Virus record (IMG/VR): IMGVR_UViG_3300043105_000117
Location: 1 to 64,000 of that record
Source of the DNA: a virus
Lineage: Duplodnaviria; Caudoviricetes
Reading direction: 5' to 3' (one strand)
Length of the DNA stretch: 64,000 bases
The notes below the pieces were generated by a model. That model was given only the letters and a program-made list of their open reading frames with translations. It was not told the origin of the DNA and did no database searches. The translations under genes and the position numbers were made by a program. Numbering within the stretch: position 1 is the first letter of the stretch; each line of letters opens with the position of its first letter. Positions 28,076 through 64,000 of the stretch are shown piece by piece.

Positions 28076-28077
28076 AT

Positions 28078-28521
28078 ATGTTAAGTAAACAAGTAACTGA
28101 TTTTCGGCAATCCGAAAGAATGTGCAGTATGGGACTTATTAAAACCGCAGACATGCACTACCACCTAGACGAAAACTGTTGTTATAACATTATGTTGGGA
28201 GGCGACCTGAAAGCGCACGTAGATATTCCGGCATGGAGTGCTCCGCGGCTTTTATGCTTGCTCCCGAAACAGATAGAACTTCCTCCACTAGACTGTGATG
28301 ATGAAGAAAGAGACAGATGCGCAGCACTAGAGCTCATGTTTACATCAGAGGATTCAGTAGCGTACGGGTATCGCTATGGGTTCGTATCTAACGATGATGA
28401 GGATAAAGGCTGGCTCTACATAAACGAGTGTGATAACATGGTCAATGCATTATATGACCTTGTGTGCTTTTGCTACAACGAGAATATAAAACTTAATTTG
28501 GAGGAAAGCGAATGGTTCTAG
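28078..28521 (+). CDS. Hypothetical protein, paralog of 23225-23554
   Basis: TADM...PAWS...LL..LP. Confidence 0.65.
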   Translation: MLSKQVTDFRQSERMCSMGLIKTADMHYHLDENCCYNIMLGGDLKAHVDIPAWSAPRLLCLLPKQIELPPLDCDDEERDRCAALELMFTSEDSVAYGYRYGFVSNDDEDKGWLYINECDNMVNALYDLVCFCYNENIKLNLEESEWF

Positions 28522-28694
28522 CATCGGTTTTTATTGCTTGTGGTGCCATCATAATGACAACCATATTGTGTGCGATATTCTACTATGGGTACTTTGCCCC
28601 AGAGATTGAATCGTACAAGACTGTAATAAGAGAGTTAATGGATAAAATCAGAGAATTGGAAATTGAAATTGGTAAACTAAAAGGAGAATTATGA
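28512..28694 (+). CDS. Small membrane protein
   Basis: N-terminal TM. Confidence 0.55.
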   Translation: MVLASVFIACGAIIMTTILCAIFYYGYFAPEIESYKTVIRELMDKIRELEIEIGKLKGEL

Positions 28695-29086
28695 GTGAGT
28701 TATATTGGATTACAAGGCTTGATGCTATATGCATTGCGCTCGGATTGACTATTTTTCTGTTATTGTTGGCCATTGCATTCTTTGCAATGCGATATTATGA
28801 TTTGCGAGAAGATTACACCCGCGATTACATAAAAAAAGACGTGACGAGCGAAATACAGAGCATCGTGAAACGAATCGGTAAGATTGTATTGGCCGTAGTT
28901 GTCTTAGTGATATTTGAGGTGTTTATTCCAACCACAAAGCAAGCATTAGTCATCTACGGAATAGGAGGTACAATCGACTATATCAAAAGCAATAATACAG
29001 CGAACCAGCTACCCGACAAGGTTATTAGTGCGCTGGATAAGTATCTTGATGCGTTGAACGAGGAGAATGATGAGAAAGATAAATAA
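28691..29086 (+). CDS. Two-TM membrane protein
   Basis: MSELYWITRLD...IPTTKQAL. Confidence 0.7.
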   Translation: MSELYWITRLDAICIALGLTIFLLLLAIAFFAMRYYDLREDYTRDYIKKDVTSEIQSIVKRIGKIVLAVVVLVIFEVFIPTTKQALVIYGIGGTIDYIKSNNTANQLPDKVISALDKYLDALNEENDEKDK

Positions 29087-29297
29087 GTTACCGAAGTTAA
29101 ATTGGAAACGTTTTATCATTGGTATTCCTCTAGGAATATTAGGGTTGGGAATCGCTGCCATTTGTTTCTCGATAGGGATGGAAGTTCAAAGAGATATCGA
29201 CGGTGGTGAGTACAACCTTACAAACGTTACATCAACATTCCTGGGAACTATGATTGGAATGGCAATAAATGTGATAATTGTTTTATTGATAAATTAG
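29067..29297 (+). CDS. Two-TM membrane protein
   Basis: Hydrophobic segments. Confidence 0.6.
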   Translation: MMRKINKLPKLNWKRFIIGIPLGILGLGIAAICFSIGMEVQRDIDGGEYNLTNVTSTFLGTMIGMAINVIIVLLIN

Positions 29298-29348
29298 GTG
29301 GTATTGCGATTGTCATTTCTAAATGAACTACTAACAACACAATAAATT

Positions 29349-29633
29349 ATGATTAAAGTGATAAGCAATCCCCGAAAGGGGGAACAATTGAAACCTTACG
29401 CGAATAACGTATGGATATGGGAACTGCAAAGCGATTTGTCTTATGAACAGACGCTAGATTATTGTCAGGCGAATTTAAAGAAGTGCAAATACGAAAAGAA
29501 CGAATATTTTCATTTGTATCGGACTTTGGGATGGCCGGATGTCATGAAAGTAAAGAGTGAAGGATACTATTCGCTTGTTAGTTGCGCTGATGGCCGATAC
29601 GTTTACACAGTTGAGCAAGAATATTTGGATTAG
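29349..29633 (+). CDS. Hypothetical protein
   Basis: ORF 94 aa. Confidence 0.65.
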   Translation: MIKVISNPRKGEQLKPYANNVWIWELQSDLSYEQTLDYCQANLKKCKYEKNEYFHLYRTLGWPDVMKVKSEGYYSLVSCADGRYVYTVEQEYLD

Positions 29634-29637
29634 CAAA

Positions 29638-29877
29638 ATGGAAGGTGACAAAAGCAAGGCATTAAAACTAGTGCAGGATTCAACATCTTGCTTAGTATTT
29701 GGAGTGTATGATGAATATATGGCCGTTGCCCATTACAACGGAGAAAATATGTACACTTACATAGCAGATATATTCTCGCAGGATAAAGAACTATGTGATT
29801 TCTTTCGCGAGGCAATCAGATTTGCCGATGCAGTAAGAAACTATGAGAATGATACAGTAAACCCTCAACTAAACTAG
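29638..29877 (+). CDS. Hypothetical protein
   Basis: Start moved to ATG 29638. Confidence 0.55.
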   Translation: MEGDKSKALKLVQDSTSCLVFGVYDEYMAVAHYNGENMYTYIADIFSQDKELCDFFREAIRFADAVRNYENDTVNPQLN

Positions 29878-29918
29878 GCCGAGGGTCAGATAATAAAAAC
29901 TTAAATATTATACCGAAA

Positions 29919-30155
29919 ATGAATTTACCGACAAAAGTTCTGCTACTGGCAGATGATTATAATGAAGCACTGCGCGTTAGATGTCCGCGCGTGGCAGCTA
30001 GGTTCGGCAGACAGATATTGCCGTATATCAAAGCAAAGCATTGCGGAGAATGTGAAGCATATGCCGGTGGTAATTGTCGTCTTTGTCATCAAGAGATGAA
30101 CCGAGATGACGAATGTTTCTTTAATAAATTCGATTATAGAAGGAGGAAACGATGA
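29919..30155 (+). CDS. Small Cys-containing protein
   Basis: HCGEC...CRLC...C. Confidence 0.6.
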   Translation: MNLPTKVLLLADDYNEALRVRCPRVAARFGRQILPYIKAKHCGECEAYAGGNCRLCHQEMNRDDECFFNKFDYRRRKR

Positions 30156-30676
30156 AAGACGTCTATACAGTAACTCATGGAGAGGATGAGGAATTTACTT
30201 TCGATGGTGTGTTCGAGAGCAGGGAAATCGCACGCAAATACATCGACCAGCATGTAAGCGAGTGGACGTGGTATAAAGCGGAGGATTTTAAAATAGAGAG
30301 GTGGCCGCTTAACTGTGGAATAGACAGAGATACGTTTACATTCGTTGTGAACATCTACGAGGATGGTCATGCGGCAGCTTCAATGCAAGCTTGTCCCGAA
30401 CTAGTCGGCACTTTCCGTAAAGTGCTCCCGACAAGGGGAATGAACATCGTGTGGCAGTGTGTGGTACGAGCCAAGAATAGACAAGAAGCGGAACGTATTG
30501 CCGTAGATATGATTAAGAAAGTCGAACAGTCTGTCGCTTTATATCCATTAATGGAGAAACGATGTGCGTATGTACCTAGCATCAGTACGTATATCTATCC
30601 GTGGTACAATGCCGAGACTCACTCAATTATGGTGGATGAAGAACAAGAAATAACAGTTGAAGTATGGGAGAAATAG
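30152..30676 (+). CDS. Hypothetical protein
   Basis: ORF 174 aa. Confidence 0.7.
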   Translation: MKDVYTVTHGEDEEFTFDGVFESREIARKYIDQHVSEWTWYKAEDFKIERWPLNCGIDRDTFTFVVNIYEDGHAAASMQACPELVGTFRKVLPTRGMNIVWQCVVRAKNRQEAERIAVDMIKKVEQSVALYPLMEKRCAYVPSISTYIYPWYNAETHSIMVDEEQEITVEVWEK

Positions 30677-30945
30677 AAGAAACTAAAATCTATAAGTTTG
30701 TCGAGGAATTAAGAGAATTACTCGGAAAGTATAATGCTACGATTAAGTCGAATGTCGTGGCAAAACAAGACTTTGACATTGCAACCGGAACAGGTACAAT
30801 GCACATGTATGCAAATCTCGAATTTGAAGTGGATGGAGATGTTGCCGTACTTAGAAGCCCCTACCAGCCTGTTCAGAACGTAGAGATTGATAGTAACAAT
30901 ATATGCAACAATGAGACGATTTCATTTCTTGTGTATGACAAATAA
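30664..30945 (+). CDS. Hypothetical protein
   Basis: ORF 93 aa. Confidence 0.6.
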   Translation: MGEIEETKIYKFVEELRELLGKYNATIKSNVVAKQDFDIATGTGTMHMYANLEFEVDGDVAVLRSPYQPVQNVEIDSNNICNNETISFLVYDK

Positions 30946-51862: not shown

Positions 51863-52372
51863 TTACTCCATAGATACGACTTTTATATTGTCATCGTATT
51901 CAAGGAAGTGGCACATGCCTTTAGCATACTCGCCATTCTCACAAAGTATGTAGAATTGGTTAGGCATGATGCGGTGTACATCTCTCGGATATGGCAGCAT
52001 TGCATTGAAACTCTTGTACTGCTGAACAAGATACTGTCTTGCGTCCGCGCCACTCTCAAAAAGCAGATGTTTTTCCTTTTTGTTCTCGGAACTTTCCTCG
52101 GTGTATCTCCATTTGAAATCCGGATTGAATCTGACTTTCCACCCGAATAACTCGCCAAGAGTATCATGGACCTCGACATCTATTCCCTCGTCTTTCAGTA
52201 TGTCGATGTAATGTTTTGCCTCATCAGTCGGAATCTTGCAGATTTTACGCTCCTTGACGTAAACATCATCAATCAGAGCCAATCCGCAGACCTTTGATAC
52301 AATTTCTGCGTCAGCTTCTTCCGCTATAAGGAAGTTATAATCATCTCTTAAAGTTACTTTCATAAGAATCAA
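51863..52372 (-). CDS. Hypothetical protein
   Basis: ORF 169 aa. Confidence 0.65.
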   Translation of the reverse strand: MILMKVTLRDDYNFLIAEEADAEIVSKVCGLALIDDVYVKERKICKIPTDEAKHYIDILKDEGIDVEVHDTLGELFGWKVRFNPDFKWRYTEESSENKKEKHLLFESGADARQYLVQQYKSFNAMLPYPRDVHRIMPNQFYILCENGEYAKGMCHFLEYDDNIKVVSME

Positions 52373-52390
52373 AAATAATTATTCAATAAG

Positions 52391-52705
52391 TTAATCTTCG
52401 CACTTCTTTATCAGAACCGATTGGTTCTGTCCTGCTTCCACTATGTGATAAGCTCCCTTGGGTGTGAGCTTTTTGGTAAGCAGCCGACCTGAGTATATTA
52501 TGTCCGGCATAACGTTGTCTGTTCTCCACTCAAGTTCCCATCTGCCAATTCTTAGAATGGTTTTTGTTCCATTCGCACCGGAATGTTCGATAATGTCATG
52601 GACTCCATACAGTCTATTCTCTGTCAGGACCCTATTTTTAAGAGCCAGAACATCATTATTACTTTTGCACAACCCATAAGCTGCGCGGTATTCTTCCTGC
52701 GTCAT
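52391..52705 (-). CDS. Hypothetical protein
   Basis: ORF 104 aa. Confidence 0.65.
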   Translation of the reverse strand: MTQEEYRAAYGLCKSNNDVLALKNRVLTENRLYGVHDIIEHSGANGTKTILRIGRWELEWRTDNVMPDIIYSGRLLTKKLTPKGAYHIVEAGQNQSVLIKKCED

Positions 52706-52724
52706 ACATAATCGGTTTAAATGA

Positions 52725-52958
52725 TTAATACTCTATTGCCTCGTCAAGACTACTTATCGCTTCGTCTATGCTGTCTACGGCAGACTGCAATTGCTCGATG
52801 ATTTCTTCCATCCTGTCGCCGCGCTCACTGTATTGGATAGATTCAGGAAGATTGTCGTAGCATTCCTGCTCCGTATCTATAAGCATATCTATCTCGTCTC
52901 TGATTACTTCAAGCTGTGAGCATAGTTTCTCAATCTGTTTTCTTCTTTGTGCATTCAT
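52725..52958 (-). CDS. Small acidic helical phage protein
   Basis: MNAQRRK...EQECYDNLPESIQYSERGDRMEE. Confidence 0.75.
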   Translation of the reverse strand: MNAQRRKQIEKLCSQLEVIRDEIDMLIDTEQECYDNLPESIQYSERGDRMEEIIEQLQSAVDSIDEAISSLDEAIEY

Positions 52959-52978
52959 TGTTACAAAATTTTAGTGTG

Positions 52979-53212
52979 TTAAATATCTAGTACAAAAGTT
53001 CTCAAACAACCTTCATATACGTTCTTAATCTCTTTAAGACATGACAGCTTCATGGCCTCATTCTCTGCATCGAGTGAATCCTCTCCTGATTCCTGTATCT
53101 TATGTTCTAAGTTTGAGACTTCATCCATGAACTCATCAAAAGCCTTTGTGAACTTGTGGTCGTAAAGGAATACGCTGTTGTCCCATTCCGGATTTCTACT
53201 TTGTTTTTTCAT
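52979..53212 (-). CDS. Small acidic protein
   Basis: ORF 77 aa. Confidence 0.65.
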   Translation of the reverse strand: MKKQSRNPEWDNSVFLYDHKFTKAFDEFMDEVSNLEHKIQESGEDSLDAENEAMKLSCLKEIKNVYEGCLRTFVLDI

Positions 53213-53245
53213 TGCCCTGCGTCAGTTTTACGTGTGCCTCACGTT

Positions 53246-53641
53246 TTAAATGTATTTCTTTATAGTTTCTCTTGCCCAATCAATAACTTCCAGTTTTGAC
53301 GGATTTCTGACGAACTCAACGATTTTCAGTTCCTCTGTCGAGTTGTCTATAATGTCAGCTTCATAGAAGTATTTCACATCCTGCAATCTATTTTTCTTGG
53401 TGTAGGTGAACGCTTCATTCTCTGTACTGAACAGTTTGACGTCATCACCACCGGTATCAACCCCAACAGATATGCGGTACTCGTAGTCTGGCTTTTCCTC
53501 AATGCCTGTCTCCAAATATTCATAGAAAATGGATTCTTGCAGTTCCTCGCGTTTTTGCGATGCGCTCTCATGCGACTTGAATACGAAAGAGGCAATCTTG
53601 TTTTTCCTCTTGTCGATAGCAAATAATGTGTATAGTTTCAT
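53246..53641 (-). CDS. Hypothetical protein
   Basis: ORF preceded by conserved hairpin. Confidence 0.7.
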   Translation of the reverse strand: MKLYTLFAIDKRKNKIASFVFKSHESASQKREELQESIFYEYLETGIEEKPDYEYRISVGVDTGGDDVKLFSTENEAFTYTKKNRLQDVKYFYEADIIDNSTEELKIVEFVRNPSKLEVIDWARETIKKYI

Positions 53642-53697
53642 ATCAAAAAAAAATAATATTTGTACTGCGGAAGGCTATCACACCAACCGCAGCTTTG

Positions 53698-54012
53698 TTA
53701 ATCACTAATATCAAAGAATATGAGGTAATCTCCAAGATTACTCAAAATATCTTTTATTCCCTCTATGCCGAACTCACACCACATCATAAAGAAAGCCATC
53801 GGCAAGAGTATCAAAAGTCCCGCAACGAGCCCCAAAATGCCTCTATAATGAAATATCGTCTTTCCTCTCGATACAAAACGGCATATGCTCATCGGAATAA
53901 GATACATAAGGAAGATGTAAAACACCCACCAGCCAAACATACAGAACTCAATAATGAGATCTAGTAACACCCATAAAAATACTACCATAATCTTAACTAT
54001 TAATCCAATCAT
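53698..54012 (-). CDS. Membrane protein
   Basis: Very hydrophobic, overlaps recombinase stop. Confidence 0.55.
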   Translation of the reverse strand: MIGLIVKIMVVFLWVLLDLIIEFCMFGWWVFYIFLMYLIPMSICRFVSRGKTIFHYRGILGLVAGLLILLPMAFFMMWCEFGIEGIKDILSNLGDYLIFFDISD

Positions 54013-54970
54013 TAACTTGTGAGGGAAGTTCTCTTTCCTCCATCACCAAATATCCCTCAGTAACCTTGACCGAACTGTGGCCCATACGTCTTGCAATAGT
54101 GTAGATATCGCATCCTCTGAGATAGAGGTTGCAAGCGTATGAACGTCTTGCGGTGTGGCTACCGACGAACTTCCATTTTTCATCTACTATACGTTTCCCT
54201 GCGAGGAATACGGATACCTTCTCATTAATACCGGCCTTGCGGCAAATCTCGCGAAGAAGAACGTAATAACGTGCCAGGGAAATTTCTCTGCGGTCTACCC
54301 AATCAAAGAACTTCAAGAAGTTGGCATGTAGCGGAGCGGATATCACAGATTTTGTTTTCTGCGATACGTAGTTGATGCGTTTTCTCTCGACATCAATCAT
54401 CTCTCTCTTAATCAGAAGCAAGTCTGAACGTCGGCCTCCAAGATAGTACTCGCACAGGAACTGCGCCTGTACTGTTCTCTCATAAGCGTTGGCCGGAGTG
54501 TAGTTTACAATCTTTGCAATCTCATCTTCGTTGAGGTAAACGCTCTGACTCGGCTCATCCTTTACGTAGAGAGCCTTTCTGAAATTGGCTGTCGGCAACT
54601 CTACATCATCTTTCCAGTCATTGAAGATAGAATTGAGAACCTTTGAGTAAAGCTTTGCGCTTTTGGCACAAACATTGGACTGAATAAAGTTCATGGACTC
54701 GATAAGATTCTGTCTTGTCATATCTTCCCAATTCGGTCTCTCCTTACCCAAGGCTTTCTCAATGTATCTTATGACGGTCGTGTACTGCGGATATTTTCTC
54801 AGGAAAGCACCGGTGAACGTCTTGGCCCACTCTTTAGGATTCTCGCCATCCTTGAAATACCCCATACAGCAAACGCGCAGAAGATATGTCTCATTGCCAT
54901 TGCCGTTGTAAAGTTCCTTGTTGAGCAGTTCAGCATTTCGTCTGTCTGCGTCAGAATAAATCAGTCTCAT
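53993..54970 (-). CDS. Tyrosine recombinase/integrase
   Basis: GGRRSD (R), SQKT (K), SHTARRS (HxxR), MGHS (H), TEGY (Y). Confidence 0.9.
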   Translation of the reverse strand: MRLIYSDADRRNAELLNKELYNGNGNETYLLRVCCMGYFKDGENPKEWAKTFTGAFLRKYPQYTTVIRYIEKALGKERPNWEDMTRQNLIESMNFIQSNVCAKSAKLYSKVLNSIFNDWKDDVELPTANFRKALYVKDEPSQSVYLNEDEIAKIVNYTPANAYERTVQAQFLCEYYLGGRRSDLLLIKREMIDVERKRINYVSQKTKSVISAPLHANFLKFFDWVDRREISLARYYVLLREICRKAGINEKVSVFLAGKRIVDEKWKFVGSHTARRSYACNLYLRGCDIYTIARRMGHSSVKVTEGYLVMEERELPSQVNDWINS

Positions 54971-55026
54971 ACTTTTTATTTTTAGTTAATATTGGTACTA
55001 TGCGGGGCTGCCACACCCCGAATAGT

Positions 55027-55578
55027 TTACAGTTCCAGAACACCGATTGCGTAACAGTGTGAATCGAAGCTGAACTCCGTCGGCTGTTTCTTTACTGTAT
55101 CGTAATACTCACCTTCGCGGAGAATCAGCATTTCATCATCCGCAAGATTATCAATATCTTCGCAAATTGGCAGTATTTGGTCATTTAGCAAAGTCCTGAT
55201 AGTATCAATGTAATTCTCGATATCATCAACAAAACCCTTAATATCGTCTATCCAATCTTTGAGATATTGCTGACCTGAACCGGAATATAGTTCATAATCA
55301 TCAGAAACGATGCTCTGCACGTCAATCCCATCCCACGCGCAATCACCTCTTCTTGTGTAAAAGTGATGTCCTTCGGGGCGGTCAAGCAGATACACGTTAC
55401 AACTTGTAAAGTATTTCTTGGCAACCTCATTGGCCTCATCCATATTCTTGAAGCCTATCAAAGCCTCTCTGATACCACTGGGATACCCATTGATACTGTC
55501 ATTGGTCTCCACGACTGAAAGATGTGGGTAATCAATCTGAATTTCCTGCAACTTCAATGAATAATCTTCTCTTGTCAT
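55027..55578 (-). CDS. Acidic hypothetical protein
   Basis: ORF 183 aa, D/E-rich C-terminal half. Confidence 0.75.
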   Translation of the reverse strand: MTREDYSLKLQEIQIDYPHLSVVETNDSINGYPSGIREALIGFKNMDEANEVAKKYFTSCNVYLLDRPEGHHFYTRRGDCAWDGIDVQSIVSDDYELYSGSGQQYLKDWIDDIKGFVDDIENYIDTIRTLLNDQILPICEDIDNLADDEMLILREGEYYDTVKKQPTEFSFDSHCYAIGVLEL

Positions 55579-55648
55579 AATCTTGTAAATTTAAAAGGTT
55601 AATAATATTCGCGGTACGGCCTTGATACCATCGCAGCCGCCCTTTGTT

Positions 55649-55897
55649 TTACTCAACACCGTCAAAGATTGCAATTTTCTCACCGGCATCGACCATCAGC
55701 GGGAGGTATTTATCAACCATGTGCATGGCAAACCTGCACACTCTAACACCGTCACGCACCACAACGCTCAGGTTGCAAATCTTTCCGACCTTAATCGCGT
55801 CTTTGTTATAACTCTCGTAGGAATCTCCGTCACCAAAAAGGCACAACATTCCGGGATGTTTCTCTCGCAGTTCTCTGCATTTTCTAATGTCTAGCAT
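55649..55897 (-). CDS. Stand-alone MutS domain I-like protein
   Basis: REKHPGMLCLFGDGDSYESY..DA...KYLP.MV.AG.KIAI matches MutS N-terminus pattern. Confidence 0.7.
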   Translation of the reverse strand: MLDIRKCRELREKHPGMLCLFGDGDSYESYNKDAIKVGKICNLSVVVRDGVRVCRFAMHMVDKYLPLMVDAGEKIAIFDGVE

Positions 55898-55922
55898 ACT
55901 CTCTCTATTTTAATTGTTAATA

Positions 55923-56303
55923 CTAAATGTAATTGCAAGGTGTATTATGAATCTTCTCAAAGAATATTCTGAATACCACATATTCTTTTGTGAGTTCATA
56001 GTCGGCTTCGCTTCTGATTGCGATGTACTCGATGAAGTTATCGTGGTCGTTTCGCTCTAACATCTTGAAATCATTGAAACCTTTGGTAACTCGCATTAGA
56101 CGTTTGATTGTGTCCTCCGCAGCCTTGAAGTTGGAGAATATCTTACTATATTCAAGCATCAGGTTTTCTCGCTCGGCTTTATAGGTTGTCGGCCCGGTGT
56201 AGTACTTTAGAACATACACCTCACTTCCTTTCTCATACAAATGCGCCCAATCGGAGTCCGCACATTTTGGATAGTCCTCTTGAAAAAATCTAAACTTCTT
56301 CAT
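55923..56303 (-). CDS. Hypothetical protein
   Basis: ORF with AAGAGTATG start. Confidence 0.7.
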   Translation of the reverse strand: MKKFRFFQEDYPKCADSDWAHLYEKGSEVYVLKYYTGPTTYKAERENLMLEYSKIFSNFKAAEDTIKRLMRVTKGFNDFKMLERNDHDNFIEYIAIRSEADYELTKEYVVFRIFFEKIHNTPCNYI

Positions 56304-56367
56304 ACTCTTTTGTTTTATGGTTAATGATTGTGGAACGGTATTGATGCAATCTCAACCGCCCTGTACC

Positions 56368-56643
56368 TTAGATATCGTGTTGCTGTAACTCTATGGTGAA
56401 CTCGTCTCCATCTCTGTCCTGCACGTTGATGAAATACCCGGTCATGTTCTTTTCTGCATCAAGGAGCGGAAATTTTCTGTAAAATGTAACATTGTCACAA
56501 CTAGGAGAGAGTCCGAATGTGTGTTTAAAAAAGTCCATTCTTTCTTCCGCTTCCTCTTTTGTAGTAAACAAACTTGAATCTGCGGTAAGTACCTCGTCTT
56601 TGATTGCGATAGCCGCAACTACTGAATAAATCTTCATACTCAT
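56368..56643 (-). CDS. Hypothetical protein
   Basis: Start moved to ATGAGTATG at 56643. Confidence 0.7.
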   Translation of the reverse strand: MSMKIYSVVAAIAIKDEVLTADSSLFTTKEEAEERMDFFKHTFGLSPSCDNVTFYRKFPLLDAEKNMTGYFINVQDRDGDEFTIELQQHDI

Positions 56644-56702
56644 GTATTTTAAAGGGTTAATAATTGCAGCCGGGCCACCCGTCACGATGGACCGGCATGT
56701 TG

Positions 56703-56972
56703 TCAGAGTATTGTTGCCTTTGTCTTAATGCACTTGATGTCAAATGTTACATCTTGCGACAACATATTGTCCTTGTCTCGCCACTCGGTCCATTTGTCTC
56801 CGTCCGGGAGTTCAACAGACGCTTCTCTGAATCTTTCCTTTGACAGTATTTTGCGATACCAATCGCACTTCTTTTGGTATGCTTCCTCCGCAACGGCCAG
56901 GTCTAAGTAGTAACTAGGAGTTCCACCCAGTGTTGAAACGATGTAAAGCTTTTGTAAAATCTCTCTCTTCAT
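56703..56972 (-). CDS. Hypothetical protein
   Basis: ORF with AAGAGTATG start. Confidence 0.7.
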   Translation of the reverse strand: MKREILQKLYIVSTLGGTPSYYLDLAVAEEAYQKKCDWYRKILSKERFREASVELPDGDKWTEWRDKDNMLSQDVTFDIKCIKTKATIL

Positions 56973-57071
56973 ACTCTTTGAAATTTTAGTGGTTAAGTAA
57001 TCATGTTAATTGTATCTTGTACAATGGCACACCTATCAAGCGTACCATTGTTTATCAACCTTATTACAATG

Positions 57072-57101
57072 CAAATTTACGAAGTAAATTATAAATAGCA
57101 A
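57072..57101 (-). promoter_or_regulatory. Internal promoter with overlapping palindrome
   Basis: - strand TTG-N19-TAAATTTG; AATTTAC-GAA-GTAAATT at 57074-57090. Confidence 0.6.
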
Positions 57102-57112
57102 TAGGTGAAGTG

Positions 57113-57445
57113 TTAAAAATGCTCGACTTTTATATGTTTTACAACATCATAATAGATGTAGTCCTCAAAGAAGTTGAGCACGTCCTTAAACGAGGGAAAT
57201 TCTCTGATATTACCTCCGCTATCTGTCACGAGCCAACTATCGAACACTTTGGGTGGCTCAGGATTAGCGCAACAGTCGCATCCGCAGTCGCCTTTGTCAA
57301 TAAGGAACTCCCAGGACTCTTCTTCATTGCCATTAGGTTGCAACATCGGAAGCTTTGTTCCGATTACGATTCTGTACTCAGTTGGTTTCTCTGCAATTGT
57401 CAGCATGCATTCTTTCAGTTGGTCTTTCATTTCCACAATTCTCAT
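57113..57445 (-). CDS. Hypothetical protein
   Basis: ORF with AAAGTATG start. Confidence 0.7.
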   Translation of the reverse strand: MRIVEMKDQLKECMLTIAEKPTEYRIVIGTKLPMLQPNGNEEESWEFLIDKGDCGCDCCANPEPPKVFDSWLVTDSGGNIREFPSFKDVLNFFEDYIYYDVVKHIKVEHF

Positions 57446-57480
57446 ACTTTCATTAATTTTAGTGATTAAACAATACCCTT

Positions 57481-58014
57481 CTATAATACGTGAACATAGG
57501 CGATTTTACCGTCGTAGCTGCAACCTTGATACTCGATGTATTCTTTGGTGAATAGCGGAATATCGGGCTCGCCATCCCTTGTAACGGTCGCCCACGTTTC
57601 GTTGTCCGGTTTCCCGTTTCTGACGAAAACGGAATAGTAATTGCGGTTACGGTCTTGGAACAGCCAATATCCGTTGTGCGCTGACTCAAAGTGTGCATCG
57701 CGTACTCTCTTCATCTCGTAGTATTGGATATTGCTCATTCCGATAAGCGCGTCAAACACCTCATCACATTTGCCGTATAAGTGCCCGTATTCGCCCTCCA
57801 GCCGACTGATGTATCTTACGATATTATCCCAAAGAAACGATGATGTATCTCTTCGCTCAGGATAGTCGAGGGTTCTAGCGTACTCTACGTTCTCTATGAA
57901 CGTCTTAGCTTGAAACTCTGACAGTCTGCCGACCTTTATAATGTCAGCGACCAAATCACCGGTTTTGTAACCGTTAGGCTCTCTGTCGAGCACTGTGAAC
58001 TTAATTTTCTCCAT
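57481..58014 (-). CDS. Hypothetical protein
   Basis: ORF with AAGAGTATG start. Confidence 0.7.
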   Translation of the reverse strand: MEKIKFTVLDREPNGYKTGDLVADIIKVGRLSEFQAKTFIENVEYARTLDYPERRDTSSFLWDNIVRYISRLEGEYGHLYGKCDEVFDALIGMSNIQYYEMKRVRDAHFESAHNGYWLFQDRNRNYYSVFVRNGKPDNETWATVTRDGEPDIPLFTKEYIEYQGCSYDGKIAYVHVL

Positions 58015-58082
58015 ACTCTTAAAATTTAGTTAAACAATATTAGTATCGGGCGCAAGCTACCAACCTGCGCCCGATTTGTTTG

Positions 58083-59150
58083 TTAGTGAGTGATGCGACA
58101 TCTCAGCTTGAAGTAAGCCTCATGAACTCCATTGAAAGAATCTGCTGTTTTCTTTCTCTTTCCCGGAACATTACGGTATCTGCAATAGCCCAGCCCAACC
58201 TCGGTGACCGAGCTGAGAAGCAGTCCGCGTGTACGTGGATGAATCTTAAAGCTGACGGAATCAGCAAGCTCTAAAAAGTCCGCGGTACTGAGAAACTCTC
58301 CATGTTCAATCTTTGCGCGTGAAACTTCAAGTCTTGCCTTACGCTCTATCTCTTCCGCTTCCTTTTGCGCTTTTTCTCTCGCTTTACGCTCCGCTCTGTC
58401 CTGTTTCTCTTTTATCGCTCTCATCTCCAGACATCTTTTACGTGATGCAAGGAGCGGAGTCACATCGTAGCCGAGTCGCTTCATTACCTCAATCTCTAAA
58501 TTGTTGAAGTAACAATCAGAATTATCGCCAACCGTATGCGCGGCAATAAAGCCATTTCTTACTTCGAGCGTGAGGGATATTATCTGCGACTTATTGTCCT
58601 CATTGCACTTTACGTAAGTACCGAGTTGGAATATCACACCATTAATTTCGGTGAAATACAAGTCGTTGTAATCATCAATAGACTCACAATATACACAGTC
58701 TGCTATCTTGGAAAGAACTATCGGATAGTCGGTCAGCGTGTTGCCATCTTGCTTGTATCGCAAGGCATGAACCTTGACCATACCCTCAGGCAGTTGCTGC
58801 TTGGCTTTCTCTTTCAGTTCCCAAATAACCGGCAATTCCGGATGAACAGCTCTGCGTATAATCTCTGCTTTGGGAGATGGCTTACACTGCGCGAAGTCAT
58901 GGTTTTGGAAACGATTCAAGAAATGCGGCACGTTTGGAATTATATCATATGCCAGCTTCACAGGAACGTCTGCCTCAATCCAATAAACTCCGTTAAGCTC
59001 CAGAACAAACGTCACTTTATCATCGTCCATAGGACGTGTGATGTAAGCGTTGTCTGCAATCTTCGCGATGTTCATCGTCTTAGACTTTAGTGTTGTGCCA
59101 TTCTCGACGTAGAGGATTCCACTCACTCTTTTGTAACTTAAATTCTCCAT
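58083..59150 (-). CDS. Hypothetical protein with charged coiled coil
   Basis: Start moved to AAAAGTATG at 59150; IHPRTRG motif. Confidence 0.7.
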   Translation of the reverse strand: MENLSYKRVSGILYVENGTTLKSKTMNIAKIADNAYITRPMDDDKVTFVLELNGVYWIEADVPVKLAYDIIPNVPHFLNRFQNHDFAQCKPSPKAEIIRRAVHPELPVIWELKEKAKQQLPEGMVKVHALRYKQDGNTLTDYPIVLSKIADCVYCESIDDYNDLYFTEINGVIFQLGTYVKCNEDNKSQIISLTLEVRNGFIAAHTVGDNSDCYFNNLEIEVMKRLGYDVTPLLASRKRCLEMRAIKEKQDRAERKAREKAQKEAEEIERKARLEVSRAKIEHGEFLSTADFLELADSVSFKIHPRTRGLLLSSVTEVGLGYCRYRNVPGKRKKTADSFNGVHEAYFKLRCRITH

Positions 59151-59214
59151 ACTTTTGATTTTTAGTAAAACAATAATAGTTGATGGGCAAGCGTTCAGTC
59201 TCACCCACCATAAA

Positions 59215-59535
59215 TCAGTCACCGAACATTGACTTGCAGGTTATCTGGCAAAGTTCAAGCGGTGTTTTGCCCGTGAAGTCCAAATCTACAACCGAGAGAA
59301 TGAGGTCAATTAGTTTTCTGAATACCATGAAGCACATTTCGTTATAGAAATTCCGGTCTATCACATTGGTAGACACAAGTGGCTTAACATCCTCTTCAAA
59401 CATTGTAAGTGCACAGCGAGGGCCTTCGGAATAATCTATGTAAAGGCCGTACATCCAGCATTCACTCACGTGGTTTCCGTAGTGTTTCTTGCAAGCGTTT
59501 ACAACATCTCTTTTAGCATTTTCGTAATAATTCAT
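59215..59535 (-). CDS. Hypothetical protein
   Basis: ORF with AAGAGTATG start. Confidence 0.7.
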   Translation of the reverse strand: MNYYENAKRDVVNACKKHYGNHVSECWMYGLYIDYSEGPRCALTMFEEDVKPLVSTNVIDRNFYNEMCFMVFRKLIDLILSVVDLDFTGKTPLELCQITCKSMFGD

Positions 59536-59620
59536 ACTCTTATAATTTTAAAGTGAAACAATAAATCGTGAAGATGCCCGAACCCAATCGGACACCCTCT
59601 CATAATACCTAAACTAGTAA

Positions 59621-60487
59621 TTAGAAATCGACTGTTCCTATCTCCTGCTCCATCTTGCGACGGAACTCATATGGGTAAGGCTTGTAAACGTCCTTATAGT
59701 TCGGATTTGGACGATATAGCTCAATTTCCTTTTCAGTTGTGTTGATGTAACAATCAACCACGCTGCCATTGCAATAAGTCCGGACAAGCTTAGCACCCAC
59801 AGGCAATTCCGCTACCGAACTAAAATACAGTTCCGAAATGTTGTGAGATAGCTTGTAACGCTTGAATGTGTCATTGCCGTCCCACTCGGTTTTTGTTGCG
59901 CCAACATAAGCCAGGAATCTGTCAAGTTGCTCGACACTCACAAATCCGAAAGCAATGAAACAGCTCCAATTGGTATTGTCGATTGTAACCGGCCATTTAC
60001 CTTCTTCTCTTTTATTCAGGTAAACGTTAATGAATGTGCGTGACTGCCAAGTGTAAGGAATCGACCAACGTCTGACGGGAGCACTAAAATGAAGCCCGCC
60101 ACCGGCACAAGCACCAACGCGGCCAAACGTCCAGAAGTCTGCCTCATCGTCACCGACGAGATTAAACTCCGACCTGTCGTGAGTGAAGAATGGACCGCCA
60201 CTAATTGAAGTACCAATCCATTTCGTACTATCGAACACACTGACCGAACCTTCCGCGCAAACTGTAATCTTGTCACCGACTATCTTGTCGATACGTCCAT
60301 ATTGATACTCATACATTCCATCGTAATAAGCACCCTGAACCAAGTCACCTACGTGAGGCTCATTGTCGGAAAGCTGCATTGCAGAAATCAGTCCGATATA
60401 GTGGTCTACAATCTGAAAATCTCTTTCCGTAAGGTCGTAACGCATAGCATATGAACCATTAGCCTCGATAAACTCTTTTCTCTCCAT
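59621..60487 (-). CDS. DUF4121-like protein
   Basis: PHVGD...SISGGPF...FWTFG..GACAGGGL.F.A.V..W. Confidence 0.65.
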   Translation of the reverse strand: MERKEFIEANGSYAMRYDLTERDFQIVDHYIGLISAMQLSDNEPHVGDLVQGAYYDGMYEYQYGRIDKIVGDKITVCAEGSVSVFDSTKWIGTSISGGPFFTHDRSEFNLVGDDEADFWTFGRVGACAGGGLHFSAPVRRWSIPYTWQSRTFINVYLNKREEGKWPVTIDNTNWSCFIAFGFVSVEQLDRFLAYVGATKTEWDGNDTFKRYKLSHNISELYFSSVAELPVGAKLVRTYCNGSVVDCYINTTEKEIELYRPNPNYKDVYKPYPYEFRRKMEQEIGTVDF

Positions 60488-60567
60488 ACTCTTAAATTTT
60501 AAAGTGAAACATAAATGAATTAGAAAGCTACGCGGCTGTCACACCACGTAGCCCACAATACTAACAA

Positions 60568-61014
60568 TTAACACCTGACGTCGGTCAGAAACACTACTCT
60601 ATTCGCTTCCAAAGCGGAGAATAGTGAGGCCTCGTCAGTTATGGGTCTCTTATGAGGCTTGAAGTCAATGTACTCGTAGTAACACAGCCCGAAATTTACA
60701 GCTTCCTTGATTGTCATTGGATACATAAACATGATTTTCAGCTTCCGTTCCATATTACTGTTGCGCGGCACAAATTGAAAGATTTTGTCTGCAAACACCT
60801 GTCTGCAAACGTTCTTTATTGCATGCTCGACATCATTGAACAATCTCGGAGCAGACTTAACGAATGCACCGGGTAACGTACTCCAATATTTCTCTCTCAC
60901 CATATTGCCTTTGCTATCCATTACACGAACGTTGTTAGAACCATTCTCAAAGATTGGCAATATGCCGCGTGAAGTCTTGATTGCGAGTCCACGATAGATA
61001 ATTTGGTAACTCAT
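60568..61014 (-). CDS. Hypothetical protein
   Basis: ORF with CATAGTATG start. Confidence 0.7.
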   Translation of the reverse strand: MSYQIIYRGLAIKTSRGILPIFENGSNNVRVMDSKGNMVREKYWSTLPGAFVKSAPRLFNDVEHAIKNVCRQVFADKIFQFVPRNSNMERKLKIMFMYPMTIKEAVNFGLCYYEYIDFKPHKRPITDEASLFSALEANRVVFLTDVRC

Positions 61015-61087
61015 ACTATGAATATTTTAAATTAAACATTAGTAGTCGGACGGACTGTCACATCCATCCGACATTCGCTTCATATGC

Positions 61088-61339
61088 TTACTTTGTCACA
61101 TCTTCCGGGATAGTACCGTTTGAAAGTCTGATTCCGAACGCACCGGCATAAACCGCAGCCAAGTTCGCGTCAGGATTATCGACCATATAGGCCGCAACTT
61201 TGCGAAGCTTCGCGGATATCTGCATCGGACTCCATCCGAAGAATATCTTCAAACGCTCCTTGAATGTCTGATGAACACTTGATGTTGAAATCATCTTGTA
61301 AGCATAAGCAACTCTGAGTTTTCTTTCTTCTTTAGTCAT
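61088..61339 (-). CDS. Hypothetical protein
   Basis: ORF with AAGAGTATG start. Confidence 0.7.
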   Translation of the reverse strand: MTKEERKLRVAYAYKMISTSSVHQTFKERLKIFFGWSPMQISAKLRKVAAYMVDNPDANLAAVYAGAFGIRLSNGTIPEDVTK

Positions 61340-61405
61340 ACTCTTTAATTTTTAGGTTAAACATGTCGTAACCGGCACGACTATCACATCGTACCGGCCG
61401 TTTCA

Positions 61406-61816
61406 CTAAATCACATATTTAAGAGGCAATCTCTCGTATGCTTCTCTGTATGCTCTCTCACCAATGCCGTACTTTGTAACGCTTTTCTGAACGTTATATA
61501 CGACCTCATTGCGGACGCTCAAACGGATACTATATCTGTTATCGTTGAATAGTCTGAATCCGTCATCTTTGAAAGCTTTGCGGACATCGGCAGGGAGCAA
61601 CGTAAGGACGCGCAATGCGCATTGCATCCTGTTTATTCTCTCAACGTCGCTTACTGAGTATTCTCTGTGTCGAGGTATCGAGAACTTTAATTCACTCTCG
61701 ATGGACTCCGGGTATCTGTAAGTTCCATTTTCCGTTGTCACAGTCACCATTCCATTCTCGACTACTTTATTCTCGCAGTTCACGATTTCGCTGATTTCTC
61801 TTTTAATACTCTTCAT
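61406..61816 (-). CDS. Hypothetical protein
   Basis: ORF with AAGAGTATG start. Confidence 0.7.
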   Translation of the reverse strand: MKSIKREISEIVNCENKVVENGMVTVTTENGTYRYPESIESELKFSIPRHREYSVSDVERINRMQCALRVLTLLPADVRKAFKDDGFRLFNDNRYSIRLSVRNEVVYNVQKSVTKYGIGERAYREAYERLPLKYVI

Positions 61817-61881
61817 ACTCTTATTTTTTTAATTAAACATTCAGTGGGTTGCGCGACTATCACACCGCGCAATCCTTTTTG

Positions 61882-62037
61882 TCAATCGGCCCATGTGTCG
61901 AAGTACACCTCTCGTGTTGAGAACAGGTCACGTCTGCAACCGAACTCTTTCACACAATCATCAATTACATCTTTTGCCTCCTGAATATCGTCATAATATC
62001 CATAGCACCAACCATCATAATTAAGTTCAATCTCCAT
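61882..62037 (-). CDS. Small acidic protein (51 aa)
   Basis: Read by eye; fills one cassette exactly, AAGAGTATG start. Confidence 0.65.
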   Translation of the reverse strand: MEIELNYDGWCYGYYDDIQEAKDVIDDCVKEFGCRRDLFSTREVYFDTWAD

Positions 62038-62107
62038 ACTCTTTGAATTTTAAGTTAATAAATAGGTTGTGGCGCGACTTTGATGCAATCGCAGTCGCCC
62101 TTTTAGT

Positions 62108-62320
62108 TTATTCCTCAAATCCTATTCTCCGCATACATTTCTTTACCCATGCGGGAGTTGCATAAATACGTTTAACGCTTGACACAACGGCATAGCCTCC
62201 GTTCGCCACGAATTGAATGTGGTCTATTGGCTTTGCTTTTGCTTTAGCTTCCGCAAGCGTGTGATAGTCCTGTATTCCATACCGATTCACGACTCTGTAA
62301 ATAATTCCTCTCATACTCAT
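62108..62320 (-). CDS. Hypothetical protein
   Basis: Start moved to ATGAGTATG at 62320. Confidence 0.65.
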   Translation of the reverse strand: MSMRGIIYRVVNRYGIQDYHTLAEAKAKAKPIDHIQFVANGGYAVVSSVKRIYATPAWVKKCMRRIGFEE

Positions 62321-62388
62321 AAAATTTAAATTAGACATTCGGGTTGATAATGGTAGTCCGGAACGTTGCCACACGCGCCGGACATTTT

Positions 62389-62760
62389 TTACATCACCGT
62401 AATACTGTCACCAAATCCACTGTACACAAGCCCATTCAGTTCATATATCGGCATGAAGTTACTCGTGAAACCTTGAAAGTGGAAGTCGCGGGCCGATGAT
62501 GAAAAGATGAGGTTTTTCGTTCTCTCGTCCACGACTGCCTTACGCTTATTTGCAATCTTACGCAGCCATCGCAGGCCCTGTTCACCTTGCTCGAATGTAA
62601 CGGGGATTCCTTTGCTTTTGAACTCCGGAATGGTAGTCCTTTTATAGACTGTAACTCCGTTGCGCTCTGACATTTTCTTTAATGCCTGAATCTGGCTCTT
62701 TGTGATGTAACCTTGACTCTTGATTTCCTCGAAAATACTCTCTTTAGTTCTCATACTCAT
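62389..62760 (-). CDS. Basic hypothetical protein
   Basis: ATGAGTATG start. Confidence 0.7.
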   Translation of the reverse strand: MSMRTKESIFEEIKSQGYITKSQIQALKKMSERNGVTVYKRTTIPEFKSKGIPVTFEQGEQGLRWLRKIANKRKAVVDERTKNLIFSSSARDFHFQGFTSNFMPIYELNGLVYSGFGDSITVM

Positions 62761-62822
62761 GTTATTTTAAGTTAGACAATAGTTGTAGTCGGATGGCCTG
62801 TCACAGCCACCCGGCCTTTTTT

Positions 62823-63815
62823 TCATTCGTAGTACGATTTGACGTCATCGAATATGCGTTTCAATTCAGATTTGGCAAGTTCCGGATATTTATCACGGAA
62901 CACCGTATAAAAGTCGTCAAACTCTGAATCTGAATTGTTGTAGAGATAATCATCAATCTCGTCCCACATGCACCAATAATCATCATCAGGCATGTCGTCA
63001 ATCCCACTTTTGATATCTCCGAAGTCCCATTCGTACCACTTGGAGTTGTTTCCGATACTCAATCTGTTTCTGTGCGGATAGTCATGAACTAGTGAGCATA
63101 ACAGGTCGTGCACCATACTAGTGCATCTGTTCAGGTCGTCAATTACCGTTATCTCATGGTCTGTATGCGGTTCATAATATCCGCATGAAAGATTGATACA
63201 TGAAACACCGACTCCGTTCTGAACTAATTGGTAGACGTCAGTCAGTGAACCGTCGCACTCATGATATCCGTAAGTTTCCGGCTCGACGTCCGAGATGAAA
63301 TCTTCACTGCATATCGGTGTGCCGCAAGCATTGGTAATCATGTCAGAACGTCCTCGACGGTCGCACTGAATGATATACTTAACATCCTTGAAGAACTCCA
63401 TGTCGCAGTTTGCACTTCCCAGACATCCGACTTCCTCTTCCGCAAAGAATGCAAGCTTGATATTGTCAATATCTTCAAGCAAACATGTAAGAGCGACATA
63501 GATACCGTTTTTATCATCTGCTCCGAGCCCTTCCTGTCTGCGGTTTTTCGGTGAATATCCTAGCAGAATACCGTCCGACTCAATGACCTTGAAATCCTTT
63601 GAGTGTGAGTGACTGCGAACCTGGTCCATATGTGCGACCACGCAAGGATAGCTCTCCGATTTACCTTTGGTTATGTAGAGATTAACACCGTCGTCCGCGA
63701 TTGCCGCGTCGGGAGCATTTTTGCTAACCCACTCAGTGATAAACTCTCTCATCTTACACTCTTTGCCACTAGGAGAATAAATCATATACAACTCCTTCAA
63801 TAAATCTAGATTCAT
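62823..63815 (-). CDS. M28/M20-like zinc peptidase with acidic tail
   Basis: VAHMD, GADDKNG, EEVGC.GS, DRRG, GYYEPHT; start moved to 63815. Confidence 0.85.
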   Translation of the reverse strand: MNLDLLKELYMIYSPSGKECKMREFITEWVSKNAPDAAIADDGVNLYITKGKSESYPCVVAHMDQVRSHSHSKDFKVIESDGILLGYSPKNRRQEGLGADDKNGIYVALTCLLEDIDNIKLAFFAEEEVGCLGSANCDMEFFKDVKYIIQCDRRGRSDMITNACGTPICSEDFISDVEPETYGYHECDGSLTDVYQLVQNGVGVSCINLSCGYYEPHTDHEITVIDDLNRCTSMVHDLLCSLVHDYPHRNRLSIGNNSKWYEWDFGDIKSGIDDMPDDDYWCMWDEIDDYLYNNSDSEFDDFYTVFRDKYPELAKSELKRIFDDVKSYYE

Positions 63816-63889
63816 ACTTTTATTTTTTAAATTATACATTCAGTTGATTGTGTCAGTGCGTGAAGTATCACCCTCGCGCACTGTTTTTG

Positions 63890-64000
63890 TTAAGCCTCGG
63901 TCAATTCCTCGGTTTTCACGATTTCGGTCCATGCTTGACGTTCCGTATCCCACTCAAACTCATCAGTCGGAATGTTTTCTTCGAGAGCCTTGACCCATTT
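63890..64000 (-). CDS. 3' end of a gene truncated by window edge
   Basis: Open frame ...EFEWDTERQAWTEIVKTEELTEA-stop, followed by hairpin. Confidence 0.55.
   Translation of the reverse strand, partial: KWVKALEENIPTDEFEWDTERQAWTEIVKTEELTEA

Follow-up and report, generated by a model that had tools for sequence, protein, structure and literature searches.

The window analysed here is 64,000 nt long and comprises bases 1–64,000 of a 79,417-bp viral genome that was judged complete (IMG/VR record IMGVR_UViG_3300043105_000117). On its minus strand lies an array of about 30 small accessory genes that are separated by repeated intergenic modules. Each module has two parts, a hairpin and, following it, a leader of about 30 nt that is rich in A/U and ends in AGTATG. 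We find that the A/T block is explained by known Bacteroidetes biology and that the hairpin is a new, strongly supported structured element. We propose that the modules act as punctuation at the RNA level, by processing or stabilisation, and we give this reading a probability of roughly 0.45. Cutting of the hairpin as a tRNA mimic by RNase Z or RNase P would be one form of such punctuation, which we consider possible but doubtful.

The intergenic modules and their hairpins

The original prediction described 17 hairpins on the minus strand between 53,664 and 63,883 and listed their loop sequences, and we recovered all of them. The array is real, but its extent was given too short, as it continues beyond the window to position 69,063 of the genome. 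Over its whole length we count about 27 hairpins, and the shared leader precedes 30 gene starts. Its first element is a hairpin at 69,033–69,063, which stands ahead of the first small array gene (ATG at 68,997), and no such hairpin is found after the last module gene. The intergenic lengths are uniform, mostly 64–76 nt, and two extra junctions (57,443–57,483 and 55,895–55,925) carry the A/T block and no hairpin. The pattern TAAAWW-N6-10-AGTATG occurs nine times in the window compared to 0.36 expected occurrences; a chance origin of the modules is excluded. The junctions in the window, two further hairpins on the plus strand and the recombinase gene are listed below, with scores in bits.

63813..63892, minus strand: module before the gene of a 330-aa M20/M42-like peptidase; hairpin 63,848-63,887 with loop GUGAUA, leader ending AGTATG; R1 38.7 bits
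62752..62825, minus strand: module with A-run, hairpin 62,781-62,820 (loop GUGACA), leader, ATG 62,754; 41.2 bits; strain single-nucleotide polymorphisms preserve or improve the pairing
62312..62391, minus strand: module with hairpin 62,349-62,388 (loop GUGGCA, tail ACCA), leader, ATG 62,314; 38.1 bits
62035..62110, minus strand: class-B module with hairpin 62,071-62,100 (loop GAUUGCAUCAA), then AC, leader, ATG 62,037
61814..61884, minus strand: module with hairpin 61,840-61,879 (loop GUGAUA), leader, ATG 61,816; 40.2 bits
61337..61408, minus strand: module with hairpin 61,364-61,403 (loop GUGAUA), leader, ATG 61,339; 36.6 bits
61012..61090, minus strand: module with hairpin 61,038-61,077 (loop GUGACA), leader, ATG 61,014; 43.9 bits
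60485..60570, minus strand: module before the DUF4121 gene; hairpin 60,519-60,558 (loop GUGACA), leader, ATG 60,487; 34.2 bits
59533..59623, minus strand: module with 12-bp hairpin 59,570-59,599 (loop UUGGGU), AC, leader, ATG 59,535; the orthologue in relative L217 retains the pairing via a G-C to G.U change
59148..59217, minus strand: module with 11-bp hairpin 59,181-59,210 (8-nt loop), AC, leader, ATG 59,150; 17.6 bits
58012..58085, minus strand: module with 14-bp hairpin 58,045-58,075 (loop region UUGGUA), AC, leader, ATG 58,014; 20.4 bits
57443..57483, minus strand: hairpin-less junction with the full A/T leader (TGTTTAATCACTAAAAT...AGTATG)
56970..57115, minus strand: long junction with host-type promoter 57,072-57,101, 14-bp hairpin 57,021-57,051, AC, leader, ATG 56,972
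56635..56705, minus strand: module with hairpin 56,662-56,701 (loop GUGACG), leader, ATG 56,637; 32.4 bits
56301..56370, minus strand: class-B module with hairpin 56,332-56,361 (loop GAGAUUGCAUCAA), AC, leader, ATG 56,303
55895..55925, minus strand: hairpin-less junction with A/T leader, before the stand-alone MutS-domain-I gene
55576..55651, minus strand: class-B variant with hairpin 55,611-55,642 (loop GAUGGUAUCAA), leader ending ATTATG, ATG 55,578
54968..55029, minus strand: module before the tyrosine recombinase gene; hairpin 54,991-55,030 (loop GUGGCA, tail ACCA); 35.1 bits
53993..54970, minus strand: tyrosine recombinase, co-oriented with the array, near its distal end
53639..53700, minus strand: last module; hairpin 53,658-53,697 (loop GUGAUA), AC, T-rich leader, ATG 53,641; 39.9 bits
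16013..16153, plus strand: two class-A hairpins, 16,013-16,052 and 16,114-16,153; 33.9 and 33.7 bits; in a rightward-transcribed region free of open reading frames (ORFs), beside tRNA-like elements

The commonest hairpins (class A) have a 12-bp stem and the hexaloop GUGAYA, with the variants GUGGCA, GUGACG and AUGAUA. The loop sequences reported earlier are present, but with G.U pairs allowed they form this hexaloop and not an octaloop. Our gapless alignment of class A comprises 20 copies, of which 13 belong to the array, two to the plus strand (16,013–16,153) and five to a diverged relative. Positions 2 and 3 of the loop are invariant in this alignment. The flanks, which the original prediction had overlooked, are nearly so: an A precedes the stem in 17/20 copies, and the stem is followed by A (18/20) and then C (20/20), with a C as the next base in only 2/20. 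We observed that 92.9% of the stem cells are paired compared to 52.7% in shuffles, with 0/500 shuffles reaching the observed values; this pairing is partly by construction, as the copies were picked as hairpins, whereas the contrast between free stems and a fixed loop and flanks is not. All 12 stem pairs show double changes, and sliding the partner by 1–3 columns lowers the pairing to 32–46%. Besides class A, there are GAGAUUGCAUCAA loops (four copies), a GAGUACGAUAAC class, a few singletons and, where the array starts, loops that contain UGAACG. In about 23 of the 27 modules, irrespective of the loop class, 30–31 nt of hairpin lie between the A on one side and the A-C on the other.

When comparing the two strands, we find the more stable fold on the sense strand in 21/27 modules (mean -18.4 compared to -14.1 kcal/mol for the antisense strand, Wilcoxon p=2e-4). 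Furthermore, the stem cells contain 44 G.U and 5 A.C combinations (p=8e-9). A covariance model built from the class-A alignment places all array hairpins on the minus strand and the two extra hairpins on the plus strand, with no antisense match at E<0.05. Both fold stability and pair counts indicate that it is the sense strand on which the elements work, and this speaks for RNA. The earlier claim that both structure and loop are under selection, made because the stems vary while the loops are kept, is supported by the covariation and by the changes among strains and lineages described below. The element appears to work as a single strand with the sense sequence, most simply as RNA.

The hairpins are not ordinary sense terminators, as had been noted before: the 10 nt downstream contain 3.2 T on average, and canonical U-tract terminators are found elsewhere in the phage. 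A generic terminator scan returned 9 terminator-like sites compared to 8.5 in shuffles, and thus no excess. That U-tracts generally fall on the antisense side did not hold up, as an A-run (at least 5 of 8) lies upstream in only 6/27 modules. A minority of modules could act as bidirectional terminators. We rejected an N4-type promoter formed by a DNA hairpin: A.C mismatches would be present on the template strand, and only tape-measure features were seen in the giant virion protein.

The hairpins match no described RNA family, in line with the original prediction: in an Rfam search, no family reached its gathering score in the window and none reached E<=1 in 52,000–64,000. For the rest of the genome, the sole Rfam match is c4-2 antisense RNA at 78,778–78,853 (minus strand; L198:15778-15853), which is above the gathering score (46.1 bits, E=2e-7), far from the array and outside the window. 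Our sample of host genomes comprises 272 Bacteroidales genomes. The covariance model detected no repeated element in this sample, with 0 matches in 121 Bacteroidaceae genomes and two isolated weak matches in 151 Bacteroidales genomes, compared to about 7 expected by chance in the latter. Neither the leader motif nor the hairpin was found in five complete LoVEphage-like genomes or at 80 loci of relatives of the large terminase (TerL) at about 60% identity. Megablast of the array against GenBank phages gave no match. A scan of IMG/VR with the leader pattern returned at least 114 single, apparently random matches and no second array, and IMG/VR scans seeded with the peptidase and integrase proteins returned no close relatives. 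Scanning metagenome DNA with the class-B loop pattern gave only three chance matches, and the TerL search of genome contigs gave one short prophage fragment. No antisense partner RNA for the class-B and class-C loops was found within two mismatches; a 7-nt match at 8,345 that had been pointed out earlier is no better than chance.

The leader and the transcription of the array

Anchored on the ATG, the 30 array starts have A at -3 in 29/30, at -6 in 25/30, at -5 in 23/30 and at -11 to -13 in 24–29/30. The leaders contain no G from -20 to -9, and T is invariant at -1. A motif resembling a Shine-Dalgarno (SD) sequence precedes 0/25 array genes. The other genes of the phage show the same A pattern weakly, with A frequencies of 0.43–0.50 compared to 0.8–0.97 in the array. 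In Bacteroidetes mRNAs, A is enriched at -3, -6 and -11 to -15, and this enrichment is linked to translation efficiency (PMC7366714). Furthermore, an A-rich TAAAA-type motif lies 7–9 nt ahead of all genes, including internal genes of operons (PMC6028130). As it also precedes internal operon genes, this motif is not a promoter. The base positions show the A/U-rich leader of about 30 nt to be an optimised Bacteroidetes SD-less translation start and not a promoter. The leader ending in AGTATG, which had been read as a special signal of a dedicated system, is instead an extreme form of this known type of start.

The median distance from the foot of the hairpin to the ATG is 34 nt, and the median 5' untranslated region of B. 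thetaiotaomicron is 32 nt (PMC7366714). With the SD-less starts of Bacteroidetes, as far as they are summarised for Baez et al. 2019 in PMC7366714 and for group B of GeneMarkS-2 in PMC6028130, the array has in common the A positions, the TAAAA core and the missing SD. It differs from them in being far more uniform and in adding a TGTTTAAY box at -27 to -18 and an invariant G-T before the ATG (T-T in the L249 lineage, see below); both additions are unaccounted for by the SD-less start pattern. Elsewhere in the window, at 22,500–30,700 on the plus strand, about 13/22 genes have a GGAGG-type SD 6–8 nt ahead of the ATG, which is unusual for a Bacteroidales phage.

The promoter pattern TTG-N17-23-TAnnTTTG (Bacteroides -33/-7) has one intergenic match on the minus strand of the array, at 57,072–57,101 (TTG-N19-TAAATTTG). 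In the sole long junction (before ATG 56,972), a stop codon immediately precedes this match, and the hairpin follows downstream of it. This putative promoter suggests a second transcription unit. Another near-consensus promoter is found near 70,470, upstream of the gene that precedes the array. The placement of the promoters, together with a hairpin before the first gene and none after the last, suggests one or two long transcripts in which the hairpin is read through. This points to the hairpin probably being functionally on the 5' side of each unit. Between a 186-aa gene and the first array hairpin lies an 830-nt G+C-rich stretch (genome 69,000–69,830, minus strand; L198:6000-6830; outside the window) with GGTCGG-type repeats and no convincing gene, of which only the final ~90 nt are conserved in relative L204. 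This stretch may be a long leader, an origin or an attachment site.

A possible processing signal with tRNA-like geometry

We propose that the array is a long leftward early operon, probably with two transcription units, one starting near 70,470 and the other at the 57,101 promoter. The hairpin, consisting of an unpaired A, a 12-bp helix, a hexaloop, an unpaired A and a C 14 nt past the loop, would be a processing or stability signal at which the polycistronic message is cut into single-gene mRNAs with short uniform leaders. The likeliest agent would be the tRNA-maturation machinery of the host, because the helix is as long as an acceptor stem and a T stem together and the A-C-(not C) on its 3' side copies the end of a pre-tRNA. 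The cut would be made by RNase Z at the 3' foot, by RNase P at the 5' foot or by both enzymes. As a by-product, the repeated modules may serve as homology patches for the gain, loss and exchange of cassettes.

Counted from the end of the T-loop in a tRNA, the discriminator is the 13th nucleotide and position 74 is the 14th. All of the 20 class-A copies have 12 paired columns, matching the acceptor plus T stem, which have a stacked length of 12 bp (PMC7954030). In a third phage lineage (L249), the C is the 14th nucleotide past the hexaloop in 11/13 hairpins, the same distance as in the window. We compared the 3' flank to 44 distinct tRNA genes from three Bacteroidaceae genomes (G006, G009, G021; loci L219-L248). 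The discriminator is followed by C74 in 43/44 of them, and a C does not occur at position 75 (A 18, T 18, G 8). CCA is templated in none of the 44 genes but one doubtful case, and Bacteroidetes tRNA genes are mostly without CCA (PMC5143459). The flank A-C-(A/U)-A of the hairpin thus looks like a copy of the template end of host pre-tRNAs. RNase Z is encoded in Bacteroidaceae host genomes and absent from the phage.

The two class-A hairpins of the plus strand lie in an ORF-free, RNA-rich region (15,950–16,570) that also contains two hairpins with GUGAGUAUA-containing loops. The same region includes two anticodon-less tRNA-like elements, at 16,284–16,382 and 16,492–16,562, which have true T-loops (UUCGAGU, UUCGAUU) and end in ...CCC-ACAA. 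ARAGORN detects no tRNA in 15,950–16,570.

In plant mitochondria, both tRNA-like t-elements and plain stem-loops resembling an acceptor stem are cut by RNase Z/RNase P and thereby make mRNA ends (PMC1920247). The array resembles mitochondrial punctuation by plant t-elements and animal tRNAs in having intergenic mimics of the acceptor branch in putative polycistronic transcripts, and in both settings translation does not rely on SD sequences. In contrast to mitochondria, the elements belong to a bacterial phage and are simple 30-nt hairpins that lack a cloverleaf and, in this lineage, a T-loop as well; one operon contains about 27 of them, and cleavage is here proposed only. A second parallel is given by the early RNase III sites of T7 (R0.3 to R1.3), which are hairpins between consecutive early genes whose processing yields single-gene mRNAs with stable hairpin ends. 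The T7 sites are irregular duplexes of about 20 bp with an internal loop, whereas the 12 bp with a conserved hexaloop found here are too short for a classical RNase III site.

Several points weigh against the proposal of processing by tRNA enzymes. We infer the cleavage, the position of the cut and the enzyme from sequence, and we recognised the likeness to tRNA geometry only in hindsight. The loop GUGAYA is no T-loop, as it does not fit UUCRANY, and the UUCGYU-type hexaloops of the L249 lineage are T-loop-like only. Neither ARAGORN nor the tRNA models of Rfam detect the hairpins. The stem is preceded by A, whereas host pre-tRNAs favour U at -1 (26/44), so that the mimicry of an RNase P substrate is incomplete. 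In the class-B hairpins (loop GAUUGCAUCAA), the span is unchanged and the inner structure differs. Furthermore, the loops are kept within lineages and differ between them (GUGAYA compared to UUCGYU), which host tRNA enzymes would not require and which fits a lineage-specific binding factor or homogenisation among modules. Lastly, the strand-specific folding would fit single-stranded DNA equally. We thus put forward only tentatively, at clearly less than even odds, that the bare hairpins stand in for the top half of a tRNA and that host RNase Z and/or RNase P cut the 16-kb early transcript into about 30 mRNAs, at sites that double as cassette joints.

Relatives, cassette turnover and rival explanations

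Near-identical copies of the phage (98–99%) are colinear, and their few changes in modules keep or create pairs or swap A/G at loop position 4. L204, at about 69% nucleotide identity, has the same modules and the same loop repertoire with different stems. Its orthologous hairpins show compensatory or wobble changes, or are wholly replaced with the 12 bp and A-C kept, and it has one additional gene-plus-module. In L217, two further changes preserve the pairing. Some array genes (those of the 505-aa protein and its neighbouring peptidase, of DUF4121 and of MutS-domain-I) have more distant homologues in other Bacteroidales elements and phages, where the gaps are 4–25 nt long and modules are missing, with the exception of one module-like hairpin in L218. 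That hairpin stands ahead of the homologue of MutS domain I in an unrelated phage contig (L218:11324-11563). In the window, the MutS-domain-I protein is a stand-alone 82-aa protein (55,649–55,897, minus strand) that consists of the mismatch-binding domain alone, and it may be a decoy for host mismatch repair. The 505-aa protein (L198:890-2407, minus strand) is of unknown family and has more than 1,500 homologues in Bacteroidales elements. In L206-L210, the gene directly following these homologues encodes 322–356 aa and is like the array peptidase (window 62,823–63,815, minus strand) by size alone. In comparison with the contexts checked (L206-L210), a hairpin module between the 505-aa gene and the following gene is found only in this phage lineage.

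The L249 lineage was found via its recombinase, which is 58% identical to that of the window. It has no array gene in common with this phage except the recombinase, and it has the same module architecture. Its junctions consist of a stop codon, a 10–12-bp hairpin, a conserved C and then TAATTAYTAAC..TTAAAA..GATTATG, with loops UUCGUU, UUCGGU, UUCGCU, GUCGAA and similar. As judged from these comparisons, the architecture is common to at least three rare phage lineages.

The edges of gene gain and loss in relatives lie at modules, as the idea of cassettes had anticipated. For instance, L204 carries its extra cassette, and the haplotypes L249, L252 and L255 differ at modules. In the ten contigs of the third lineage, haplotypes differ by a 113-aa cassette and a replaced upstream block. 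When comparing L249 to L252, we find that the homology starts at the first base past the 3' foot of the hairpin. The hairpin stays with the upstream gene. In L249, an identical 25-nt stretch of leader precedes two unrelated genes, and in three haplotypes the same gene is preceded by three different leaders. Within the phage itself, the modules at 66,196–66,262 and 56,301–56,363 are 85% identical over 67 nt. A seeming swap of a 113-aa and a 119-aa gene in L253 was rejected, as it is a different gene of equal length. In this small sample of events, cassette turnover appears to behave as described for the cassettes of promoter-early stem-loops (PeSLs; PMC2839356).

The phage encodes a large terminase, portal, major head protein, helicase, ERF recombinase and a 2,735-aa tape-measure-like protein. 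Judging by its terminase, which shares about 61% identity with the terminases of Bacteroides LoVEphage, Bacteroides phage BI-TP1 and Phocaeicola phage PV4-TP1, its host is a member of the Bacteroidales. An annealing protein of the ERF type is accompanied by a PD-(D/E)XK nuclease. One tyrosine recombinase (53993..54970, minus strand) is the sole integrase found. The array proteins are mostly without a known family (ORFans). Among the about 50 phage proteins scanned, we found no sigma factor, RNA polymerase, RNA-binding protein or nuclease that would be a candidate factor for the modules. Outside the window, at genome 74,632–78,762 (minus strand; L198:11632-15762), lies a 1,376-aa fusion of a helicase and a DNA methylase that is apparently split by two intein-type insertions (matches to Intein_splicing, Hint_2 and LAGLIDADG_3).

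The hairpins could instead be read by a phage RNA-binding protein or nuclease specific to each lineage, which would recognise the loop, measure the helix and process, protect, antiterminate or translationally control the units. Such factors are familiar from Cas6/Csy4 at repeat hairpins, yeast Rnt1p at AGNN loops and lambda N at boxB. This explanation accounts for loops that are kept while stems turn over and for one scaffold with lineage-specific loop families (GUGAYA here, UUCGYU in L249). It is also in line with the lack of a repeated element in the sampled Bacteroidales genomes and its absence from LoVEphage-like relatives, and the factor could be among the ORFan proteins of the array. However, no RNA-binding or nuclease domain appeared in the protein scan, and since the arrays of the two lineages share the recombinase alone, a common factor would be encoded elsewhere or would differ. 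The A-C flank that copies host pre-tRNA ends is also left unexplained. The loop-binding factor that had been proposed was not found, the best current reading does not require one, and we consider it unlikely. An improbable explanation is that the hairpins are passive and need no specific factor. They would block 3' exonucleases, insulate unstructured starts or attenuate transcription that reads through, and would resemble each other via descent or gene conversion. GUGA and UUCG are classical stable tetraloops, and intercistronic hairpins that stabilise mRNA are known from repetitive extragenic palindromic (REP) elements and T7 early mRNAs. The loop motifs thus suit a passive role, as do the homology of whole modules at a distance (66,196–66,262 and 56,301–56,363) and the identical leader before unrelated genes in L249. 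Yet gene conversion would homogenise the stems too, and the stems are unrelated. Moreover, a passive block needs no constant 12 bp, no C at 14 nt past the loop in two lineages and no unpaired A on both sides, and one hairpin stands ahead of the first gene while none follows the last module gene.

The turnover of cassettes also bears on two explanations modelled on known cassette systems. In the first, which we regard as quite improbable, the hairpins would fold in single-stranded DNA as in integrons, and the tyrosine recombinase would act at the A-C foot, moving leader, gene and hairpin together. The modules resemble attC sites and IntI systems in that co-oriented, promoterless cassettes of variable content and unrelated ORFan cargo carry one strand-specific hairpin each and are accompanied by a tyrosine recombinase. 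Furthermore, the recombinase and the module architecture are all that the two lineages share, and the recombinase closes the L249 array and lies near the end of the array here. Haplotypes differ by whole cassettes, one edge of homology falls exactly at the 3' foot of a hairpin, and L204 has its extra gene-plus-module. Still, the likeness to integrons suggested before fails on the type of integrase, on attC boxes and extrahelical bases and on an attI point. The recombinase reaches 31.9 bits for TIGR02249, where the cut-off is 265, with only residues 267–308 (42) aligned, and its homologues (36–37% identity) occur in LoVEphage-like phages that have neither hairpins nor an array. It is the only integrase of the phage, and it is distal and co-oriented with the array. 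In the classical lambda pL layout, an early operon of small accessory genes likewise ends with an integrase. The hairpins have no RYYYAAC/GTTRRRY boxes (the R and L boxes) and no extrahelical bases, they are 30 nt long compared to 57–141 nt, and their loops are conserved instead of variable; pairing of 5' AAAC with 3' GTTT is possible in just 4–5/27 modules. In L249, the junctions next to the recombinase are without good hairpins and invariant in ten contigs, which argues against an attI-like insertion point. Leader segments swap between modules, as in homologous recombination, and two hairpins lie in the cassette-free, non-coding region at 15,950–16,570. The second explanation is that the hairpin terminates or attenuates upstream transcription and that the A/T block is a promoter of each gene for a phage-modified polymerase, yielding near-leaderless mRNAs. 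The PeSLs of the T4-type phages RB49 and phi1 are likewise stem-loop modules upstream of ORFans in a plastic early region, with gain and loss at modules and A/T-rich crossovers (PMC2839356). In addition, the A/T block is unusually conserved for a translation start, with its TGTTTAAY box and G-T at -2 and -1, and the spacing from TAAAAT to the ATG is fixed (8–10 nt). However, PeSLs have a strong sigma-70 promoter, an SD site, a variable position of the stem-loop and a terminator role (PMC2839356), whereas the modules lack both a host-type promoter and a U-tract, the geometry of their hairpins is fixed, with loop and flanks conserved, and their leader has no SD. No module but the 56,972 junction holds a Bacteroides -33/-7 promoter, which there lies upstream of the hairpin, and neither a sigma factor nor an RNA polymerase was found among the phage proteins scanned. 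The A pattern falls on positions known to act inside the mRNA leader (PMC7366714), and in B. thetaiotaomicron only about 3.7% of the mRNAs have leaders <10 nt. We thus consider promoters of this type very unlikely.

If processing at tRNA-like hairpins is true, the array would be a counterpart in a bacterial virus of the tRNA punctuation of mitochondria, and possibly a new use of tRNA-maturation enzymes in mRNA processing. That C74 is templated without C75-A76 in Bacteroidaceae bears on how tRNA 3' ends are made. The phages form a third group, after the T4-like and Felix O1-like phages, in which repeated intergenic modules mark swaps of accessory genes. An insulator combined with a strong translation start may also supply parts for Bacteroides engineering. 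Post-transcriptional control is poorly known in Bacteroidetes and in their abundant gut phages. To our knowledge, Bacteroidetes do without SD-led initiation and Hfq, and one hairpin plus one SD-less leader per gene would provide a compact model for the expression of internal cistrons in such hosts.

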